Source: a virus. Taken from it: a stretch of DNA of 64,000 bases. The translations under genes and the position numbers were made by a program. Where the stretch lies: positions 32,001 to 96,000 of the IMG/VR virus record IMGVR_UViG_3300032241_002567; one strand, 5' to 3'. This document shows, in pieces, positions 3,019 through 62,800 of this stretch; position 1 is the first letter of the stretch, and every line of letters begins with the position of its first letter. Below the pieces are notes generated by a model, which worked only from the letters and a program-made list of their open reading frames with translations, did not search any database and was not told the origin of the DNA.

Positions 3019-3861
3019 TTAAGAAATTTTTCTTTTTTTAAGAAAATTATAAACTAATTTTTTATACCAAGGTAAATCATCAATAAGTTTTACATTTATT
3101 AATTCAAACATATATTGTGAAGTTGGTGAGTATTCTTCAATTGCTCCTATCCAGGTAATATGTTTAGTATCAATTTGAATATCATTTTCAATCAAAGCTA
3201 CGCCAGCTAAATTATTTTGACTACTATATCTTCCAACTAAAATTATATCATCATGTGAATCATAATTTACAAAAACAGATAACCCCATTACATTTCCAAT
3301 TTGTGTTATAACTTCATATTCTTTAATTTTGCCATTTGTATCATAAATAAATCCTGGTATATTTTGAATTAAGTGAACTAATTTTGGACTAATAACCATA
3401 AAAGTAGCCGGACCAATTCTATTATTTACTGCTATACTATTACCAACATGCATAATTCTTGTTATTAATCTTTTTGCATCAATATCATTATTACCAATAA
3501 GTATGTCAGAATTACTGTTTATCCATCTTAATAAGAGTTTAGATTTAGGTTTTAATGTAGTTTTTCTTATACTTTTATCGTTAATTGTCGCTAATTGAAT
3601 ATATTTGTTGAATAGTTTAGAAATTAAAGTATTTATTAATATAAAAGTATTTTTTTCATCTTTTGTAAAGATAATTTTATCACAATAAATATCCTCTTGT
3701 TTTATTTTTAATCCAAATTCTTTCATTGGAAAGCCATTTGGACCATTTGTTTCACCAAGATCGATTTGTTCGATATATGAAATTGAAGCTTTTGTTTCAG
3801 GTGCTTTATAAAAATAAGCTGTATTTAAAAATTCGGAATTTAGATAACTTTTTGAGTTCAT
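3019..3861 (-). CDS. Truncated major capsid protein (gp23/gp24)-like paralogue
   Basis: KEFGLKIKQEDI, RLITRIMHVGNSIAVNNRIGPATFMVISP and IGNVMGLSVFVN..DDIILVGR..AG align by eye with the C-terminal half of T4 gp23. Confidence 0.65.
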   Translation of the reverse strand: MNSKSYLNSEFLNTAYFYKAPETKASISYIEQIDLGETNGPNGFPMKEFGLKIKQEDIYCDKIIFTKDEKNTFILINTLISKLFNKYIQLATINDKSIRKTTLKPKSKLLLRWINSNSDILIGNNDIDAKRLITRIMHVGNSIAVNNRIGPATFMVISPKLVHLIQNIPGFIYDTNGKIKEYEVITQIGNVMGLSVFVNYDSHDDIILVGRYSSQNNLAGVALIENDIQIDTKHITWIGAIEEYSPTSQYMFELINVKLIDDLPWYKKLVYNFLKKRKIS

Positions 3862-3869
3862 TTGTCATA

Positions 3870-4532
3870 TTATTTTTTTCTTGGTTTAATAACTTCGTCT
3901 ATCATACCATAATTTTTAGCCTCAAGAGAATTCATCCAATAATCTCTATCAGCATCTTGCTCAACCTTTTTAATATCTTGACCAGTTTTTTCTGATATTA
4001 TCTCATATAATTCTATTTTTAGCGTATTTATTTCTTTAGCATCGATAGTAATATCCGAAGCCTGATATACGCCATAAGAGCCAGACATTGGTTGATGTAT
4101 CATCGTTCTTGCACGTTTTAGAGATTTTCTTTTTCCATTTGAACCAGAACAAAGAATTACTGCTGCCATAGAAGCTGCTAATCCAGTATTAATAGTTATG
4201 ATATCAGGACGAATAAAATCCATAGTATCTAAAATGCCAAGTCCATCATAAACAGAACCACCTGGTGAATTGATATACATTTTTATATCCTTTTTATGAT
4301 CTAATTGTTCTAAATAAAGAAGTTGATTTTTAACTAGTTCAGAAGTATAATTATCGATTTCATCGTTTAAAAAAACAATTCTATCATTTAGCAATTTGGT
4401 ATAAATATCTAACATAAAACCTTTTTCGTTGTCTATAATAAAGTTAGAGTTATTATGTATTGATTTCCTAATAATGCTTTCAGGAACTTTGGAGTAAAGA
4501 AATTTTTGATAATCTGATGCTAATTTTCTCAT
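3870..4532 (-). CDS. clpP: ATP-dependent Clp protease proteolytic subunit
   Basis: YINSPGGSV, GLAASMA (Ser), MIHQP (His), DRDYWM (Asp). Confidence 0.97.
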   Translation of the reverse strand: MRKLASDYQKFLYSKVPESIIRKSIHNNSNFIIDNEKGFMLDIYTKLLNDRIVFLNDEIDNYTSELVKNQLLYLEQLDHKKDIKMYINSPGGSVYDGLGILDTMDFIRPDIITINTGLAASMAAVILCSGSNGKRKSLKRARTMIHQPMSGSYGVYQASDITIDAKEINTLKIELYEIISEKTGQDIKKVEQDADRDYWMNSLEAKNYGMIDEVIKPRKK

Positions 4533-11149: not shown

Positions 11150-11647
11150 TTATAGTTTCTCAAATAAGCAATTAAATAAATTATAACTTTTGCCATTTAT
11201 TATTTCATATCTATTTTTTGGATTTCTCAATATGTTATTATTCAAAGTCCAGACAGCATTTGAAGCATATAATATCTCAGTTGGTGTTATTCTTAAATAA
11301 GGAGGATTAGTTAAATCTAAATTCATATTTGCTAAGAAAATTGCTATATTATTATAATTAAAACAAAATTTATTCAATTCTACTGAAAAAACCCTTTTAC
11401 CGCCAAAATTTTTTGGGTTTGGCAAATTTTTTAAATCAATTAAAAATACCTTATTTGAAAAATTGTATTTTTCAATATCTTTATATGTTTCTATATTTTC
11501 CAAAGTAATAAATTCTTTTGATTTTAATTTAGAAAAAATATCTTTGAGAAAGATATTTAATAATTCTTCAGACTCAAAAGTAGAACCAAATGTAAAAATT
11601 CCATTATGACAGTCTATTAAGTTTGCTATTTGTATGCTTATTTCCAC
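11150..11647 (-). CDS. Hypothetical protein, possibly a degenerate DnaB/RecA-fold fragment
   Basis: IAIFLANMN...ILYASNAVWTL...KNRY resembles DnaB C-terminal motifs; no Walker A. Confidence 0.4.
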   Translation of the reverse strand: MEISIQIANLIDCHNGIFTFGSTFESEELLNIFLKDIFSKLKSKEFITLENIETYKDIEKYNFSNKVFLIDLKNLPNPKNFGGKRVFSVELNKFCFNYNNIAIFLANMNLDLTNPPYLRITPTEILYASNAVWTLNNNILRNPKNRYEIINGKSYNLFNCLFEKL

Positions 11648-12053
11648 TACTTTCTAAGATTTGGTTTTGTTTCTCTATTTCGACCATTTTTTCTAAAACT
11701 TTTTCCGAAGCTCTTTTTATTTTACGCATTTGAAATAAAGTTTTTTCTGAACTTTCATAAAGCAATTTGTAATATGACTCTGGATTTGTAGTTTTTAAAT
11801 CAACAGATATATAATCATAAGTTACTTCATCAGGTTGAAAATCAAAATAATCAGAGTTCATTTCTGATTGCATTTTATCTTGCGTTAGATCTAATCCTAT
11901 TGTTTGTGCTGCTATTTTTATATTATTAGGTAATTCTTCTTCAAATGGATGATTAATAAATTTCCATTCTTCTGTAGATTCAGGTTTAACATCATAAATT
12001 AAAATATCGTTTCCTTTTTTTGATTTGAATAAGTTTTTAATTTTTTGTAACAT
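11604..12053 (-). CDS. Hypothetical protein containing a capsid-like LPxxxKIAAQTIGLDL segment
   Basis: Segment matches LPLVRRVAAQTLSM in 15736..16488. Confidence 0.6.
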   Translation of the reverse strand: MLQKIKNLFKSKKGNDILIYDVKPESTEEWKFINHPFEEELPNNIKIAAQTIGLDLTQDKMQSEMNSDYFDFQPDEVTYDYISVDLKTTNPESYYKLLYESSEKTLFQMRKIKRASEKVLEKMVEIEKQNQILESSGNKHTNSKLNRLS

Positions 12054-12056
12054 AAT

Positions 12057-12368
12057 TTAAATTTTATTTTGTAAATATAATTGGTTTGAAATATATTCTG
12101 AATAAGCAATAGATTCGTCTATTTGCTTACAAAGATACGAATTAATTCCGTAATAATTCATATAGTTTTTATAAGTATCTGTTTCTTCCACAGTTAATGG
12201 TATATACTCTATATCCTTTAAAATAGAATCTATTTTTCTATCTCTATTAACCGCTTTTAATTCTCTTTCTATTTCTTTAGCAAGAAAAATATCTTTTTCG
12301 TAAATATCAGAATGCATAGTTATATTAAAATTCCCATTCATCCCATTTTTGTTTGTTAAATTCATCAT
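12057..12368 (-). CDS. Small NRDRKIDSIL-module protein
   Basis: KAVNRDRKIDSILKDIEYIPLTVEETDTYKNY; start uncertain (overlaps polymerase end). Confidence 0.65.
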   Translation of the reverse strand: MMNLTNKNGMNGNFNITMHSDIYEKDIFLAKEIERELKAVNRDRKIDSILKDIEYIPLTVEETDTYKNYMNYYGINSYLCKQIDESIAYSEYISNQLYLQNKI

Positions 12369-13857
12369 CTGTATAATCTTCATCAGTTTCTTCTTGTTTT
12401 TTCTTTTGTAATGAACTACCAAATATATCCAATACAACTGATAATCTTTTTGTTATTTCTGGCATTCCTAATGGTTCTATAATTGAATTGATAGGAGATA
12501 AGATACATTTATCAAATTGTTCGTCTAAATCTATTTCAGGCGCAATTTCAATAGGATAAGAACCACGATTAAATGCGAATACCGAATTAATTTTTTTATT
12601 CTTACAATAATAATATTTTATTTTAGAACCAGATTTTAAGAATTCATATTTAGATTGTAAATCTTTATTTTTATATAACAACCAATTATAATAAGCGGAA
12701 GCTTTTACCGCAAAATGAGCACCGTTTACAAATAATAATTTATTTTTATCATCCAAAACTTTTTCATTATAATTAGAGCAACTAGATTGCATACTAATCT
12801 CATCAATTCTATCCGGAACACATAAATCAAATTCTTTTTTAAGATTTTTAACCAATTTAAGTAATTCCCGAATGTTAAAAGTATCTGGGTGACTAAATAA
12901 ATATTTAATAATATCTACGATTTTATCTCTCGCAAATGATGGTGTAGAACGTCTAACTAGCTCAACTCCCTTTGGATAGATATAATTTAATCTTTCATAA
13001 GGTATGCCATCTTCAAATACTATGTGTTGAATATATTTCTTTTTGGCAATATAAATAACAGATTCACTAATTCTTTCTAATTCAAAATCTTCTTTATTTG
13101 TAACTCCATAACTTTCAGCATATTCTTCAAGACATTTCTTAAAATATCCAGCATAACGATAATAGTCAAGTCCATGTATATAATCTAATTCATAAGACCA
13201 GTTCCATTTAAGTTTTGATTCTAATTTATTATCATTGATAAACTTATCAAAATCACGATTTTTGATCCATTTACCATCCGCTATAAATAATTCTATTTCA
13301 TCTAAATTTTGAATATCGGACAAATTTTCATAAATACCTAAACAATTAGGATTATCTGATTTAATTTCTTCTCTACCTTTTAGAATTATATGCTTTTTAG
13401 TTATTTTATCTAAATTAGAAAAGAAAAGATTTTTCCAATCTGAATGTGTTATTGCTGGTTTAAATGATACGAATAAAGAATCTGTGTCAGCGTAAATGCT
13501 AACTGGCTCTTTTTCTATTTGCTTTATTTTTCTAATGCAAACTTTTTGATGTAATTCTGTATCTTTATGCCATTGATTATACCAATAATCTTCGTTAACA
13601 CGATTCATTGTTTTAGTCAAATCTCTACCCTGAGCTGTGATTGAAGATGCCACATGGTTATTAAATAGAACGAAATAGGATGCCGCGAAGGCGCCATATG
13701 ATTTTTGCCCCACCATTTCTGGTGGGGCCATTTAAGATCCATTAAGAACTAACTTGAGTGCTAATTGTAAGGCATTGAAATAATCAACATCCTTTTTCAA
13801 GTTAGCAGCTTGAGTTCTTAATGAATCTAATTGTATTAATTTTTCTTCTTTTGTCAT
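12325..13857 (-). CDS. Family B DNA polymerase, C-terminal subunit (gp43B-like), interrupted in motif B by a 36-nt insert
   Basis: Unannotated 41-aa 5' ORF 13857-13732 ends QLALKLVLNGS*. The same frame resumes YGAFA...ITAQG...YADTDS...KKKY...KGVELVRRSTP. No exonuclease domain or motif A. Confidence 0.93.
13699..13734 (-). other. Candidate translational-bypass element (stop, hairpin, landing codon)
   Basis: mRNA GGA UCU [UAA AUG GCCCCACCA GAAA UGGUGGGGC AAAAA UCA] UAU GGC; perfect 9-bp stem at 13707-13728. Confidence 0.6.
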
Positions 13858-13866
13858 TAAAAAGAT

Positions 13867-14772
13867 ATGTTTTTAACTTATAAAACTAAACTAAAAGAAA
13901 GTTTTTTATATAAAAATATATATTTTATTATTATGTTAAAAAACAAAAAGATTGAAGTTTATATTTCATACAGAAATATAACTCACTATAAAAAATTAGG
14001 CTATAACCCCGAATTAAATGAGAATTTGGAAATCGATGTTTATGATTTACCGACATCTTCACATGTTAAAATTGATGCTATTTGTGAAATCTGTAAAGCG
14101 GAAATAAATATAAGATATCATAAATATATTGAAAATAAGAAAAGGCATGGTTTTTATGGCTGTAAAAAATGTTCAAGACAAAAAGCTTCTTTAACTATGT
14201 TCGATAAATATGGAGTTTATAATGTTTCAGAATTAGAGGAATGTAAGAATAAAAAAGAAGAAACATATTTAAAAAAATATGGATATAAAACCAATTTAAT
14301 TTCCCCAGATTATATTTCACTTATAAAAGAAAAATTGAAAGAAAAATATAATACAGAAAATTGGTATGAGATTAGAAACGGTCAAGGTTCTCCTAAAAAA
14401 TTAATAATTTTTGCAGAATCAAAAGAATATACCGAGATAAGTTTTAATTATGATAATCAATTCATGAATAGTGACTATATTATGTATAGGAATGAAGTTC
14501 GTAGACTTACTAAGACTAATGAAAAATTGTTATTCCAAAATTGGAATGGTGAAGATTTTTATGATAAAGAAATTATAAGTAATAATTTTATTTTAGATTT
14601 TAATGACCCAAATTATCCAACTATCGATCATAAAATATCTATTTATTATGGTTTCAAAAATAATATGCAGCCAAAAGATATCGCAAAAATAGAAAATCTT
14701 TGTATCACAAAGAGAAGTATTAATTCTTCAAAAAATAGTAAAAATGAATCAGAATTTATTCGTGAAGATTAA
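13867..14772 (+). CDS. Free-standing HNH-type homing endonuclease
   Basis: CEIC..CKKC, KYGV/KYGY repeats, PTIDHKISI...NLCITKRSINSSKN; start may be the second Met (13933); divergent from the polymerase. Confidence 0.75.
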   Translation: MFLTYKTKLKESFLYKNIYFIIMLKNKKIEVYISYRNITHYKKLGYNPELNENLEIDVYDLPTSSHVKIDAICEICKAEINIRYHKYIENKKRHGFYGCKKCSRQKASLTMFDKYGVYNVSELEECKNKKEETYLKKYGYKTNLISPDYISLIKEKLKEKYNTENWYEIRNGQGSPKKLIIFAESKEYTEISFNYDNQFMNSDYIMYRNEVRRLTKTNEKLLFQNWNGEDFYDKEIISNNFILDFNDPNYPTIDHKISIYYGFKNNMQPKDIAKIENLCITKRSINSSKNSKNESEFIRED

Positions 14773-15735: not shown

Positions 15736-16488
15736 TTATTTTTTATCATCATATTTAAAATCCAGATAAAATAATAGATCAGTAGGAGCCGACATTGGTT
15801 GAACAGAAGCTAAACCTGATTTTAAATATTCTTGATATTCTTCTGTATCCTCTAATTTTAATTCTTCATAATCTTCATCAAAAAGAATCGAATCAATTTT
15901 CCTATCACGATTAGTAGCAGTCACTTTTATTTCTGCTTCTTCTAATAGTTTTTCATCACCCATAGATAAAGTTTGAGCAGCAACTCTTCTTACAAGTGGA
16001 AGAACCGCACTAGCAAATGGATTACTTGAAGTTGCGGTATGTTGACTCCATAGTGTTTGTTGCTGTTGCCAAACACTATTAGAATCAGATTCGCTTATTG
16101 AATGTGCTTGTGCATATTCGTGCATCCAATCTGCTCTGCTTCTTGTAATTTCCATAGAATCTAATACAGGTTGCCATTTATCTATTGTTTCTTGTTTATA
16201 TTTTTCTATATGACATGTTGTGTATTTTAGATTTTTAACTGGTTTAAACCAAGTTTCGGAAAATTTTTTATATTCTTCTGTATCTTCAATTTTATATTCT
16301 TGGAATTCTGTATCTTCCAAAATAGAATCAATTTTTCTATCCCTATTTACTGCTATAACTTTTAATTTTGCTGCTTCTAATAGAGGACTTGATATTGTGG
16401 TGGTTGTTAATTGTATAATATATGGAGCATATATTATTTTTGATTCTTGACTTTTATATCCAATTACAATTTTATTTGAATCTTCCAT
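15736..16488 (-). CDS. Mosaic of major-capsid fragments plus two NRDRKIDSIL modules
   Basis: IGYK..IIYAPYI; IDKWQPVLD; AVLPLVRRVAAQT...SVQPMSAPTDLLFYLDFKY match T4 gp23 segments. Confidence 0.75.
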   Translation of the reverse strand: MEDSNKIVIGYKSQESKIIYAPYIIQLTTTTISSPLLEAAKLKVIAVNRDRKIDSILEDTEFQEYKIEDTEEYKKFSETWFKPVKNLKYTTCHIEKYKQETIDKWQPVLDSMEITRSRADWMHEYAQAHSISESDSNSVWQQQQTLWSQHTATSSNPFASAVLPLVRRVAAQTLSMGDEKLLEEAEIKVTATNRDRKIDSILFDEDYEELKLEDTEEYQEYLKSGLASVQPMSAPTDLLFYLDFKYDDKK

Positions 16489-16801
16489 ATTTTATCCATT
16501 CTTCTTTATATTTATCAGACAATCTTTTAAATTCTTCTGTGTCTTCTATATTAGTTGGTGTAAATTCTTTATCTTCTAAAATAGAATTAAGTTTTCCTTC
16601 TCTATTTTGAGCAGTTATTCCAGCAGCAAATTTTTCAAAATTTGCTGCTATTAATTCAGATGCTAAAATATTTTCTAGTGCAGCCTCTACATCTATTCCA
16701 CATTGTGCATACAATCCAGCAGCCTGTTCTCTTGTAATAGAAGCTTTAATTGTTTGAGTTCCAATTTTTATTTCTTTACTTATATTATTTAAGTTTGCCA
16801 T
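16472..16801 (-). CDS. Capsid backbone-helix fragment plus NREGKLNSIL module
   Basis: IKASITREQAAGLYAQCGIDVEAALENILASEL vs T4 gp23 LKAAYSIELAQDLRAVHGMDADAELSGILATEI. Confidence 0.75.
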   Translation of the reverse strand: MANLNNISKEIKIGTQTIKASITREQAAGLYAQCGIDVEAALENILASELIAANFEKFAAGITAQNREGKLNSILEDKEFTPTNIEDTEEFKRLSDKYKEEWIKYGRFK

Positions 16802-17015
16802 TTTTTATCCATTTTTCTTTATCTTCATCCGAAAGCAATTCAAATAATCTTGTTTCTTCGATATTTATTTCGGTATAATCTTTATCTTCCAAAATAGAAT
16901 TAAGTTTTCTTTCTCTATTTTATGCTTTTACACTAGCAGCAACGCACTACATTTTGTAAAATTACTTTACTATTTCTTGTTGCAGAAGTTGTGAATCAAT
17001 TTTATTACTACTCAT
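16785..17015 (-). pseudogene. Pseudogenised paralogue of the NRxRKLNSIL family
   Basis: MSSNKIDSQLLQQEIVK*FYKM*CVAASVKA*NRERKLNSILEDKDYTEINIEETRLFELLSDEDKEKWIKNGKLK*; C-terminal half closely parallels 16472..16801. Confidence 0.75.
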
Positions 17016-17796
17016 CGTCTTCGTCAAATGTTTGTTCGAAGGACAGCATTAAATTAGATATATTGTCCTTTACTAAAATAAATGTTTCAAACATATAAAA
17101 ATCAATCATATCCATGTCATCATTTATGTTTGATAAATATTTCTTATTGAATACTATATTTTGATTAATAGACGAATCAATTTCTCCAAGTTGCAATTCC
17201 CATTTAGAAGTTTCATTGGCTGCTATTTTGCCGTTATCAATTTCAATGGAAAGTATTTTGTCCTCTGAATCAATAGCACATAATTTCTTTATATCGTAAA
17301 AATCCTTTTTACTTATTTGGAAATTATAAATAGAATTATCTATATCTGTCCTTGCTTCTATTAAATCAGAATTAAGATCTTTTATATTAGATTCTTCGCC
17401 ACCAATACAATTAATCTTTAATTTACCGTTTGTAAATTGTGCTGAACGAATTTGCATAACTCCTTTATTTTCATGGTGAGGTTTATAAATAATGTCCATT
17501 TTAACCTGTGTATCTATATCAAAAAATTTTAATGATTTAATAAGTTTTGGAGCATTAACTATTATAAAATCATACATTTCTTCTTGCTCAAAGTTATCGA
17601 AATAATTTGTGGTTGGGAGAATATATGATTTCAAAGCCAAAACAGCTGAATCGTTGGCTTTCATGGAATACATAAGCACTTTATCAGATTCTATTTTCAG
17701 TTTTACAACTTCATTTATATTTGATAAGTCTTGTATTTTAGTAATAAAATCAGGGAAATAACGCTTATTTAAGTTGATTGATAATTTTTTGCTCAT
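17008..17796 (-). CDS. Sliding clamp (gp45/PCNA-like)
   Basis: Size, acidic two-domain alpha/beta pattern, position in the replication cluster. Confidence 0.65.
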   Translation of the reverse strand: MSKKLSINLNKRYFPDFITKIQDLSNINEVVKLKIESDKVLMYSMKANDSAVLALKSYILPTTNYFDNFEQEEMYDFIIVNAPKLIKSLKFFDIDTQVKMDIIYKPHHENKGVMQIRSAQFTNGKLKINCIGGEESNIKDLNSDLIEARTDIDNSIYNFQISKKDFYDIKKLCAIDSEDKILSIEIDNGKIAANETSKWELQLGEIDSSINQNIVFNKKYLSNINDDMDMIDFYMFETFILVKDNISNLMLSFEQTFDEDDE

Positions 17797-17828: not shown

Positions 17829-18344
17829 TTAGTTTTTAGATAAAAAATTATATAATTCAATAGTATTCTTTACTTGATAACCTACGTCAGATAATAATTT
17901 TACTAAAGATCTTAAATGTTCGATATGTGTTTCTATAATCTCTGTTGCTCTTTTTGCTTCAACCAAATGTCCTTCAATAATAGCCGTCATTTGACCGCCA
18001 CTAACTTTTCCATTAACATTTAATGGAACTTTTCCAAGTGCATACCAAACAATTTTATCTTGCTCTTGTCTTTTGAATTTAACTTTTTCTTTTGAAAGTT
18101 GATTAAGATAAAAAGCAATTTCATTTTGTAATCTTTCTCTATGCACCAAAGCATCAACCTGTAAATCAACTATTTTCTGTGCATTTTCGGCGTTATATTG
18201 TAATTTGGCAATTTCTAAAACTGGATGTATATCTTTTGTCCATTCATCTCTTTTTCCTTTAAAGAATTCTTCCATTCTATTATTAGACTCTTCTTTTTTG
18301 GCAATTGCTTCTAATTCTTCCTTTTCGTATAAACTAAATGTCAT
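17829..18344 (-). CDS. UvsY-like recombination mediator
   Basis: Helical; C-terminal LSDVGYQVKNTIELYNF resembles the UvsY C-terminus. Confidence 0.55.
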   Translation of the reverse strand: MTFSLYEKEELEAIAKKEESNNRMEEFFKGKRDEWTKDIHPVLEIAKLQYNAENAQKIVDLQVDALVHRERLQNEIAFYLNQLSKEKVKFKRQEQDKIVWYALGKVPLNVNGKVSGGQMTAIIEGHLVEAKRATEIIETHIEHLRSLVKLLSDVGYQVKNTIELYNFLSKN

Positions 18345-59876: not shown

Positions 59877-62800
59877 ATGACAATAGCCAAAAAGCAACAA
59901 CAACAAGAAGAAAACAAGAAATTTATATTTACAACCAAAAATGTATCAGAAATTTCTGAACAAATGAGCGATGGTGTTATTATTAAAAGATACATGAATC
60001 CATGGTTTAAAGGTGAAGTTGGAGTTCGAAGATCTGGTATATCTTTTGGTATAACTCAAGATGAAGTGCAAGAATATATTAGATGTATGGATGACGTACA
60101 ATATTTTGCAGAAAAATATTGTCAAATCAAAAGAGAAGATGGTTCTATTGGACCAATTAAATTAAGAGATTATCAAAAAGGTATATTAGATCTTTATAAA
60201 AATCCAAGAGTTATATTATGCGCCAGTCGTCAAAGTGGTAAGGCATTACGTGACAATTCCTATGTGTGGACCATTTATGGTAAGAAATTTATTTCTGATT
60301 TAAAAGTGGGAGAAAAAATATTTGGGGATGATGGTAAATTAACTACAGTCACCGGAGTATTTCCACAGGGCAAAAAACAGCTTTATAAAATAACATTCTC
60401 GGATAATACATCAGTTGAATGTTGTGGTGAACATCTTTGGGGATTATATAACCATGAAAGAATTTATAAAGTTATGCAATTAAATGATTTTAAAGATAAC
60501 TATTTAACTAAAAGAGGGGATAGTAAATTTTACACAAAAGTAGCACCTTGTGTTGAATATGAAACGAAAGAGTTGAAAATAGATCCTTATTTTTTAGGGT
60601 TATTAATTGGTGATGGTGGTATTTCAAATAAAGGAAATTATATAACATCAATAGATGAATCAATTATAAATTATTGTAGAGAAGAGGTAAAAAATTATAA
60701 TTGTGAATTAGTTTTATCAGATAGATGTACATATAGAATAACCACTTTAACTAAAGGTAAAAACAATATATTAACTGGGTTATTAGATGAATTTAATTTA
60801 AAAGTTAAATCATACGAAAAACATATTCCAAATATTTATTTAACTTCGGATAAATCACAAAGAATTCAATTATTACAAGGTTTAATGGATACTGATGGTT
60901 GCGTTGATTCAAAAAAAGGTGGTGTTGAATTTTGCACCACTTCCAAACAATTATCTATTGATTTTGTTGAATTATGCAATTCTCTTGGTATAAAAACATC
61001 AGCAACTACAAGACAAACTTCATTTACCTATAAAGGTGAAAAAAAATTAGGTAGATTGTCATATCTTATAAAAATGTATGTTAATAACACCGATTTTAAT
61101 ATCTTTAAATTAGAGAGAAAAAATGTCAATGTTAGAAAAGATAAAAAATTTAATTTGGCAACATATAGAGGTATTGAAAAAATTGAAAAAATTGAAATTG
61201 ATAATTGTACATGCATTTCAGTGGACAATAAAAGTAAATTATTTTTAACAAATAATTTTATACCAACACATAATACAATCAATGCGGCAATCTCAATTTT
61301 GCATTTTATTACTTTTAATAATGATAAAAATGTCATGATTGTGGCAAATCTTCGTGATACTACTATCGAAATTGTAGATAAGATAAAATCTATTTATGTT
61401 AATTTACCTTTCTTTTTAAAAGTAGGTATTAAAAACTGGAATCAAAAATCTATGGTTTGCGAAAATGGATGTAAAATTAGAACAGCTGCGAGAAGTAAAG
61501 CTCCTGCGATTGGTTTTACAATTGACTTCCTTTATTTGGACGAATTTGCGCATATTCCATCGAATATTATTGAGCCTTATTATACAGCAGTTTATCCTAT
61601 CGTATCAGCGGTTAATAATTCTAAGATAGTTATAACATCAACCCCAAAGGGTATGAATTTATTTTATAAATTATTAATAGATTCAGAAAGAGATGAATTA
61701 GATCCTTTAAAAACTAATTTTAAATCAAAAAGAATATATTGGTATGAAGTAGAAGGAAGATTTGTCACATATTTTCGTTTATTTGATAATAAATTATTTG
61801 AATATGGTTTAACAAAAGAAGATGTTTTTGAACAGGTTAAAGCAGCATTTCCACAAACTAAAGTTGAAATGAAATGGATAGCTGATTTAGAAAAACATGT
61901 AATTCATATTTATAATAAACATGAAGGTATCATTACACCGTCAGAAGATGTCAAAAAATTCATGGTTGAAAAAGACGATAAACAAATATTTATTCAACAA
62001 CTTGCATATGTAACTACTTGGCAAGAAGAAACAATAAAAGAAATTGGTGGCGAAGATGCCTTTAACCAAGAATATGGATTGAGATTTGTTGATGGCTCGC
62101 GTTCGTTGTTGAGCGAGGCATTAATCGATGATTTATTAAAAAATAAAAAACCTTATATACATTATCCTTCTTATGAATTTGATAGAAAATTGAAGTTTAA
62201 TTATGAAGATTTAAAGTTTGTTGATGATACTTCAATATTTTCTCCACTTGATAGGAAAAAAATGAAAATTATTTTATCAGTAGATATATCAGAAGGATTA
62301 GGACAAGATTATTCAGTAATTAATATGTTTAGAATTACACCAAAACCAATCGAAACAATTGAAAATTATAAAAGGGAATATAAATATTTATCTGACTTTT
62401 TTCATTTACAACAATTTGGTATATATAGATCAAACCTTGTATCTGTAAGACAATTGGCGGAATTGTTTTATGTATTATCTTTTGAGTATTTTGATCCAGA
62501 AAATGTTAAAGCAGTAGTAGAATATAATACTTATGGAGGACAATTTTTAGCGGAAATGCCACATCTATTTGATGGTAATAATAATTACGGTTCTGGAATA
62601 TTTTTCCGTTATAAACATAGAATAGACTCAGAAGAAGAAAAAATAGGTTTAAGAATTACTAGTAATAAAGAATTTTTAGTTAAGGATTATCAGGAACATA
62701 TGAATAAAAGAAATTTTGAAATTAATAATGCAACAAATATAAATGAAATAACCACATTTATAAAACATGTATTGCCTTCTGGAAATATAAGATATGCGGC

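Follow-up and report, generated by a model that had tools for sequence, protein, structure and literature searches.

The stretch of DNA analysed here (the window; 64,000 nucleotides, bases 32001-96000 of the 143,836-base IMG/VR record IMGVR_UViG_3300032241_002567, or G000:C1, of an uncultured megaphage) encodes a cluster of mini-genes whose products are members of an undescribed family of small proteins. In this family, a helical module of 44 amino acids (aa) is combined with short copies of conserved segments of phage morphogenesis proteins; the pieces copied in the window are three regions of the major capsid protein (MCP) and a scaffold repeat. Among the functions considered below, competitive mimicry of virion proteins, with the mini-proteins serving as decoys for, or antagonists of, host immune sensors, is the best fit and is tentatively ranked first.

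The mini-genes are located directly 3' of a uvsY-like gene and a putative clamp gene, on the same strand, and consist of the following overlapping open reading frames (ORFs) and parts, where the modules were delineated with a hidden Markov model (HMM) of the module:

16472..16801, minus strand: ORF1, 109 aa, with a spine-helix piece, a module and a basic tail
About 16649-16780, minus strand: in ORF1, E-loop return strand and spine helix of the MCP (Pfam, PHROG and own-MCP matches)
16505-16636, minus strand: module of ORF1 (module HMM)
15736..16488, minus strand: fused ORF2 and ORF3, 250 aa, separate genes in relatives
About 16390-16482, minus strand: in the 250-aa ORF, C-terminal strands of the MCP (own-MCP match)
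16246-16377, minus strand: first module of the 250-aa ORF (module HMM)
About 16204-16245, minus strand: in the 250-aa ORF, MCP-like C-terminal tail
About 15970-16197, minus strand: in the 250-aa ORF, N-arm/propeptide and strand of the MCP (PHROG and own-MCP matches)
15811-15942, minus strand: second module of the 250-aa ORF (module HMM)
About 15742-15816, minus strand: in the 250-aa ORF, conserved V-Q-P-M...F-Y-L-D-F-K-Y strand (Pfam Gp23 match)
16785..16949, minus strand: remnant of ORF0, only a module (16818-16949) and an ORF1-type tail, with an in-frame TAA

The presence of capsid pieces in the 109-aa and 250-aa ORFs, proposed in a preliminary description of this DNA, is borne out by matches to Pfam Gp23, to PHROG 138 and to the phage's own MCP, a gp23-type protein of 590 aa encoded outside the window (C1:120082-121854; Pfam Gp23 E 3e-25); all the Gp23 and PHROG matches of the mini-ORFs are short and local. 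Residues 9-51 of the 109-aa protein correspond to positions 141-183 of Gp23 (PF07068; E 2.4e-5; the score of 24.4 bits equals the curated cut-off) and match the PHROG 138 major head protein (8.5e-5), and residues 8-50 align with residues 338-380 of the own MCP (33% identity, E 2e-6 in single-subject BLASTP). In the 250-aa protein, residues 225-249 correspond to Gp23 positions 23-47 (E 4.3e-5, 23.5 bits, just below the cut-off), residues 98-173 to PHROG 138 positions 3-75 (2e-5), and residues 93-217 to residues 3-138 of the own MCP (E 9e-13, single-subject BLASTP). The match of residues 3-33 to residues 518-550 of the own MCP (36% identity, E 0.005) is modest alone and is backed by a family of about 12 clusters with the same C-terminal strands. 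The longest nucleotide stretch common to the mini-genes and the MCP gene is 21 nt, which rules out recent gene conversion; because there is no long nucleotide identity with the MCP gene, the pieces are regarded as old paralogous copies.

Along the coding strand, the E-loop return strand and spine helix come first, followed by the C-terminal strands and then by the N-arm, strand and first E-loop strand. The pieces had been described as scrambled; more precisely, their order is a circular permutation of the MCP lacking the insertion domain and the A-domain. A complete HK97 fold (N-arm, E-loop, P-domain and A-domain in native order) is absent, the pieces being permuted and interrupted by modules, and no HK97-like sheet is found in the AlphaFold models of the 250-aa ORF or of its ORF3 part. 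The strand pieces of the 250-aa ORF (residues 1-31 and 232-243) are predicted to be disordered, with predicted local distance difference test (pLDDT) scores below 50, the ORF3 part alone is modelled as helical at low confidence, and a Foldseek comparison of the 250-aa model, which is of low confidence outside the modules, with PDB yielded no match. The earlier judgement that the fragments are too incomplete to adopt the HK97 fold thus stands.

Both modules of the 250-aa ORF are modelled as a helix-loop-helix with pLDDT of about 87 and 95-97, global confidence being low in both AlphaFold predictions. The interleaving of a repeated module with the capsid pieces was also recognized at the outset, and the HMM finds copies in both ORFs. 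Applied to a six-frame translation of the 144-kb record, it retrieves five copies, all within the window (E 1e-13 to 4e-23): three in the 109-aa and 250-aa ORFs, one in the ORF0 remnant and one in a 126-aa ORF described below. The nucleotide identity of these paralogous copies, 52-72%, marks them as old. In the profile of 169 copies, with the consensus ...V-K-A-x-N-R-D-R-K-I-D-S-I-L-x-D...[IL]-E-D-T-E-E-Y-K, the Arg is invariant (169/169) and the Asn is nearly so (163/169). The module is not visibly derived from the capsid protein, because its hhalign comparison with the MCP alignment gives E 0.55; PDB sequence searches with the module profile, the ORF3 profile and the 262-aa ORF (the putative clamp) returned no match, an NCBIfam scan returned nothing, and neither a Pfam, PHROG or NCBIfam model for the module or the fragment proteins nor a description in the literature was found. 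Two further readings of the module were rejected. The [LI]-x-E signature of a T4-type protease site is not a conserved feature: of the 169 copies, only about 33% have it at the conserved I-E-[DE] position. An RNA or DNA element was suggested by a small hairpin at the N-R and S-I codons; the fold z-scores range from +0.9 to -1.6, the motif codons vary (for example, AAC CGC vs AAT AGA), and the pairing of Arg and Ser codons is without convincing covariation.

The core of the module, N-R-[DE]-x-K-I-[DE]-x-I-L, also stands as a C-terminal tail on unrelated small proteins, in the form R-[DE]-x-K-I-x-x-I-L or R-K-x-K-I-E-x-I-F, and two of the three matches to the core outside modules in the phage's own genome lie within two residues of the C-terminus. 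In G003 (L125-L128) and LR745206 (L129), scattered ORFs of 59-79 aa each contain one Gp23 segment and a basic tail, R-K-x-K-I-[EN]-x-I-F, which has the skeleton of the module core. Since the core also forms the extreme C-terminal tail of unrelated proteins, it would appear to behave as a short docking motif, of which the 44-aa module may be an elaborated form. Other occurrences include a 50-aa ORF neighbouring such segment ORFs that has the R-K-x-K-I-[EN]-x-I-F tail and no capsid piece, and unrelated small proteins ending in ...R-D-x-[KR]-I-D-x-I-L (C1:9125-9661 and C1:14218-14445, both on the minus strand, and L006:5404-5631); a 70-75-aa family with the latter tail recurs in four other huge-phage contigs.

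The survey for fusions of capsid fragments with the module that was suggested in the preliminary description showed the family to be large. A search of 1.84 billion representative proteins with the module profile gave 161 clusters (defined at 50% identity) at E ≤ 1e-3, nearly all of 50-190 aa, and full-MCP HMMs match 109 of the 167 collected proteins, mostly in the N-terminal 125 profile positions; about 14 hits fall in the spine helix and about 12 in the C-terminal strands. The commonest type is ORF3, in which the point of module insertion varies by lineage: the module precedes V-Q-P-M in 21 clusters and follows it in 18, and once it lies inside the first strand. In a complete genome of 635 kb, a single strong module copy, of the ORF3 type, is accompanied by one weaker match. 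The family has been found so far only in uncultured huge phages. The window itself has no nucleotide match among 50,697 phage genomes (blastn), and its protein matches are confined to uncultured huge phages of 460-735 kb; its own genome, with a GC content of about 25%, is estimated at about 550 kb because CheckV rates the record as 26% complete.

Carriers of the module are not limited to MCP segments. They include a head-protease fragment (P0121; PHROG 207 7e-5) that matches the phage's own protease, the N-terminus of a gp55-like late sigma factor (P0118), proteins with UVR motifs or collagen-like stretches, one chimera (P0029) and a full-size small MCP paralogue of 323-325 aa with the module near its N-terminus (clusters P0046 and P0056). 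In another lineage, the gene for the protease-fragment member is surrounded by genes of replication and repair. A further carrier type is represented at a second site of the window, next to an ORF with a capsid piece only:

12057..12437, minus strand: second-site member, 126 aa, with a module (12147-12278; HMM 1.5e-13) followed by about 1.5 copies of a 14-aa protease/scaffold repeat
11604..12053, minus strand: 149 aa, MCP strand pair without a module, residues 41-76 resembling own-MCP residues 93-130 (53% identity, E 4e-6, BLASTP)

The 126-aa ORF overlaps the end of the gene for the C-terminal part of DNA polymerase and has orthologues in L008 and L012. The source of the 14-aa repeat pieces is a 713-aa head maturation protease/scaffold protein (L092; C1:117764-119905; PHROG 207 1.5e-30), encoded directly 5' of the MCP gene, in which the protease part is extended by about nine repeats of 14 aa (A-Y-S-E-Y-I-A-E-N-L-D-K-S-I) and by an acidic region.

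Comparison with relatives shows that the locus is conserved in its setting and plastic in its content. The order of a glycosyltransferase, a metallophosphoesterase, the uvsY-like gene, the 262-aa ORF, overlapping small ORFs, a homing endonuclease and DNA polymerase is shared, and the first mini-ORF overlaps the stop codon of the 262-aa ORF in relatives. The two genes that precede the mini-genes in the window are:

17008..17796, minus strand: conserved 262-aa ORF, putative sliding clamp by synteny, directly 5' of the mini-genes
17829..18344, minus strand: UvsY-like gene (Pfam UvsY 0.01, PHROG 231 8e-4), first gene of the presumed operon

The position downstream of UvsY and clamp genes given earlier is correct, although the UvsY match is weak and the 262-aa ORF has no family or structure match in Pfam, PHROG, NCBIfam or PDB, the only lead being an ESM-Atlas match to PCNA_N. 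With the 250-aa protein as a query, a family of proteins of about 155 aa (the ORF3 type) is retrieved that covers its last 60% at 34-95% identity. L007, L008 and L120 each have ORF1, ORF2 (about 100 aa) and ORF3 (about 155 aa) as individual genes; ORF1 is fused to ORF2 in L010, and ORF2 to ORF3 in the window as assembled. ORF1 has orthologues in relatives, and in the window the sequence for its basic tail overlaps the start of the next ORF by 17 nt. An extra ORF with a UVR motif and a module is present in L008, and L012, whose 262-aa ORF is 97% identical to that of L008, nevertheless is without ORF2 and the ORF3 N-arm. Fusions and losses of ORFs and one nonsense codon thus separate close relatives, in line with fast turnover. 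The nonsense codon, in the sequence as assembled, is the in-frame TAA at 16922-16920 of the ORF0 remnant, itself a 161-nt direct repeat of the ORF1 tail (16469-16629) with 76% identity to it; a relative has GAA there and an intact ORF of 52 aa (P0058). A 35-aa ORF at this site is the tail of the module copy broken by this codon. Reading of TAA as an amino acid was ruled out, since the relative has GAA at the position and other genes end in TAA. Programmed +1 frameshifting that would join the ORFs was likewise discarded: the downstream ORFs are all in the +1 frame, but there is no common slippery site, and fusions and splits coexist. Translational coupling of the overlapping mini-ORFs is the simpler reading.

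The sequences diverge quickly as well. The ORF3 proteins of the window and of LR745206 are only 38% identical over 71% of the length of the former, despite MCPs that are very alike by eye, and the ORF3 of LR745206 is a close copy of the N-terminus of its own MCP. The ratio of nonsynonymous to synonymous substitution rates (dN/dS; Nei-Gojobori, with synonymous sites near saturation for most pairs) is 0.06-0.12 for the 262-aa ORF, 0.16-0.54 for ORF3, 0.44-0.77 for ORF2 and 0.43-0.85 for ORF1. By these values, ORF1 and ORF2 are weakly constrained. ORFs of 100-250 codons are open in every relative, compared to a stop about every 11 codons in random sequence of 25% GC.

In the relative L119, other morphogenesis genes occupy the same locus (L119:4579-8027), where truncated and diverged paralogues of the portal and terminase flank an ORF3-type gene. 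The portal paralogue (354 aa; Portal_T4 5e-27) lacks both ends and has 58% identity to the real portal over residues 81-444 of the latter, and the terminase paralogue (485 aa) consists of the ATPase domain only and is 37-42% identical to the real terminase ORFs of 710-1069 aa. The locus also contains a 77-aa ORF that combines a UVR motif with one half of a module.

These features are best accommodated by mimicry. The mini-proteins would be made together with the replication genes and would be soluble and unable to assemble into capsids; their copied strands could bind whatever normally recognises the corresponding segments, while the module may provide a common handle or effector. The most likely targets would be host immune sensors of conserved virion proteins. 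The decoy or antagonist function is ranked first, tentatively, because it makes sense of why the segments copied are the most conserved ones in proteins sensed by bacterial receptors; the turnover, the location amid replication genes and the truncated paralogues of portal and terminase are accounted for as well. The MCP and many other core phage proteins have been reported to trigger Avs-type sensors directly, the MCP being a proven trigger of Avs7/Dsr1, where it acts with EF-Tu (bioRxiv 10.64898/2026.01.04.697583). The resemblance of the present proteins to the targets of known capsid-sensing systems (T4 gp23 Gol with Lit, CapRel and Avs7/Dsr1) lies in the strand region V-Q-P-M...F-Y-L-D-F-K-Y copied by ORF3-type proteins. 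This region would correspond to the T4 Gol region. Portal and terminase are Avs triggers too. Lit, CapRel and Avs7/Dsr1, in contrast, are host sensors of the full capsid protein, whereas the proteins described here are phage-encoded fragments split by modules at variable points.

The suggestion of decoys, already made in the preliminary description, thus gains from the large family kept open, the fast turnover and the truncated paralogues, and loses from the non-capsid carriers and the general C-terminal tail. A number of observations weigh against it. Literature searches on capsid decoys or capsid fragments in huge phages found no precedent; the module occurs inside a full-size small MCP paralogue and on pieces without a clear virion link (UVR, collagen-like); and not every piece seems to be needed, because L012 is without ORF2 and the ORF3 N-arm. 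That unrelated proteins also have the core as their C-terminal tail suggests a general docking tag rather than a capsid-specific device, and this behaviour and the gene neighbourhood agree at least as well with docking to a hub, for instance the clamp. A part in the phage's own head assembly would be consistent with the head-protein carriers and with the presence of the module in the full MCP paralogue, and partial decay with the weakly constrained ORF1 and ORF2 and with the broken copy. More doubtful is the wider proposal that huge phages run a decoy system against pattern-recognition immunity, in which early operons would encode assembly-incompetent mimics of the conserved virion proteome. 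The mimics (MCP segments, portal core, terminase ATPase, head protease and scaffold pieces), many of them with the helical docking module, would then intercept or disarm Avs-, CapRel- or Lit-type sensors before the real structural proteins appear.

The strongest alternative, unlikely as it seems, is that the mini-proteins are accessory parts of the phage's own head assembly, with the head pieces anchoring them in the procapsid and the module as the functional or docking element; the closest analogues would be small prohead core proteins or capsid-targeted internal proteins. Such a role would explain why head proteins (MCP, small MCP paralogue, head protease and scaffold repeats) prevail among the carriers, why ORF3 retains the N-terminal propeptide region of the MCP, to the point of closely copying it in LR745206, and why the module is tolerated within a full-size MCP paralogue, and it agrees with the wide distribution of ORF3-type genes, including the 635-kb genome. 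It fits poorly with genes that lie among replication genes, away from the MCP, protease and portal block, with their rapid gain, loss and fusion, and with sequences that evolve much faster than the MCP; a conserved T4-type [LI]-x-E cleavage site is missing from the module, and the truncated portal and terminase paralogues of L119 are left unexplained. In T4 internal proteins, the capsid targeting sequence is N-terminal, about 10 aa long and cut at L-x-E. They and the mini-proteins are alike in being variable small proteins with one short portable element, encoded in plastic loci, but the element here is internal or C-terminal, spans 10-44 aa and has no conserved cleavage motif, and the variable parts are fragments of head proteins.

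It is improbable that the module works as a docking tag by which varied small proteins, among them those with capsid fragments, would be recruited to a phage hub, for example the sliding clamp on DNA; this could couple replication, late transcription and head production. The core resembles the clamp-binding tails of T4 gp33, gp55 and gp43, which are C-terminal tails on linkers (PMC7892883): both are short hydrophobic and basic motifs on a linker, often at the extreme C-terminus, and an h-x-x-h-[LF] skeleton after basic residues is seen at the extreme C-terminus of unrelated small proteins and in the predominantly C-terminal core matches of the own genome. The gene arrays come immediately after, and overlap with, the genes for the putative clamp and for DNA polymerase, and one member has the N-terminus of a gp55-like late sigma factor. 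However, the 262-aa ORF is only a putative clamp; unlike the T4 motifs, the core has an invariant N-R and polar positions, and it is internal in most members, the mini-genes of the window included, as part of a predicted helical hairpin. Moreover, docking to a hub does not explain why about 60% of the cargo consists of MCP segments, and the genes lie away from replication genes in other lineages.

It is quite improbable that the mini-proteins are dominant-negative weapons, soluble fragments poisoning the capsids of co-infecting T4-like phages or of capsid-hijacking satellites. As assembly-incompetent copies of interface elements, accompanied in L119 by truncated portal and terminase paralogues at the same locus, they would be suited to the task, and three strand motifs of the window ORF3 look, by eye, nearer to the ordinary T4-like MCP consensus than to the own MCP. 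Mimicry of ordinary T4-like capsids rather than the phage's own was nonetheless rejected, as overall scoring places this ORF3 nearer to the megaphage MCP (182 vs 147), and the close mimicry of the own MCP by the LR745206 ORF3 would carry a risk of self-poisoning. Capsid-size redirecting MCP homologues of the Ccm type in Staphylococcus aureus pathogenicity islands (SaPIs) are satellite-encoded and have the complete HK97 fold. The two groups share the nature of extra capsid-protein homologues acting, here by prediction, via capsid interfaces, and differ in that the present segments are of 10-60 aa and are encoded by the phage itself.

The least probable explanation is that the locus has no organismal function and holds the decaying remains of duplicated head genes, surrounding a selfish element inserted in frame: the module is found at at least three different points within one 40-aa MCP region across lineages and in unrelated proteins, with one chimera, one broken copy in the window, homing endonucleases nearby and dN/dS of up to 0.85 in ORF1 and ORF2, but the reading frames stay open in every relative, the peptide motif is retained in old modules with variable codons and no convincing covariation or RNA fold signal, and 161 clusters at 50% identity imply long-term maintenance. 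Rickettsia palindromic elements are in-frame insertions in many genes. The module is likewise short, in frame and variably placed in unrelated proteins; in contrast to these elements, it is conserved at the peptide level, with no DNA palindrome showing covariation and no fold signal.

Several further features of the genome were noted. Between the mini-genes and the split DNA polymerase, the window encodes an HNH/DUF7487 homing-endonuclease-like protein (13867-14772, plus strand), which is there in all relatives. The C-terminal part of the polymerase (12325-12470, minus strand) has, about 35 residues before an acidic end, L-S-V-V-L-D-I-F-G, conserved in L012, a possible clamp-binding motif. In two distant megaphages, a short A/T hairpin with T-A-T-A-A in the loop is located 5' of ORF3-type genes (L006:3990-4021 and L013:5940-5985) and could be a promoter or a terminator. 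A promoter scan (74 sites vs 65 expected) was uninformative in a genome of 25% GC and lends no support to the lack of a late promoter put forward in the preliminary description, and an A/T-rich TATATA-type motif precedes both structural and uvsY-like genes. A small, module-free Gp23-like paralogue of 280 aa (3019-3861, minus strand; Pfam Gp23 1.9e-6, profile positions 220-312) adjoins a ClpP-type protease gene (3870-4532, minus strand; CLP_protease 9e-70); it has homologues of 270-325 aa in G001 and LR745206, is homologous to the module-bearing paralogues of clusters P0046 and P0056, and is a candidate vertex protein or second shell protein. The large terminase ORF (about 59928-62090, plus strand; C1:91928-94090) has 1069 aa vs 710-725 aa in relatives and matches them in three pieces, indicating one or more insertions. 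Outside the window, a gp55-like late sigma factor is represented by a 123-aa fragment (PHROG 234 1.2e-5), after which comes an HNH homing endonuclease of 617 aa that may split the sigma gene (L098, L099; C1:105796-108070).

Aquatic huge phages thus contain an undescribed module family with more than 160 clusters of sequences. This family points to a second route of capsid-gene evolution in which, besides whole-gene paralogues, interface segments of 10-60 aa are copied, permuted and re-used beside a portable module. If the mini-proteins are decoys, they would be the first phage counter-measure that mimics the structural 'patterns' read by bacterial immune receptors; if the module is a hub-docking tag, it would provide a handle to map the protein networks of uncultured phages. 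Either reading is open to test with synthetic genes in laboratory strains.

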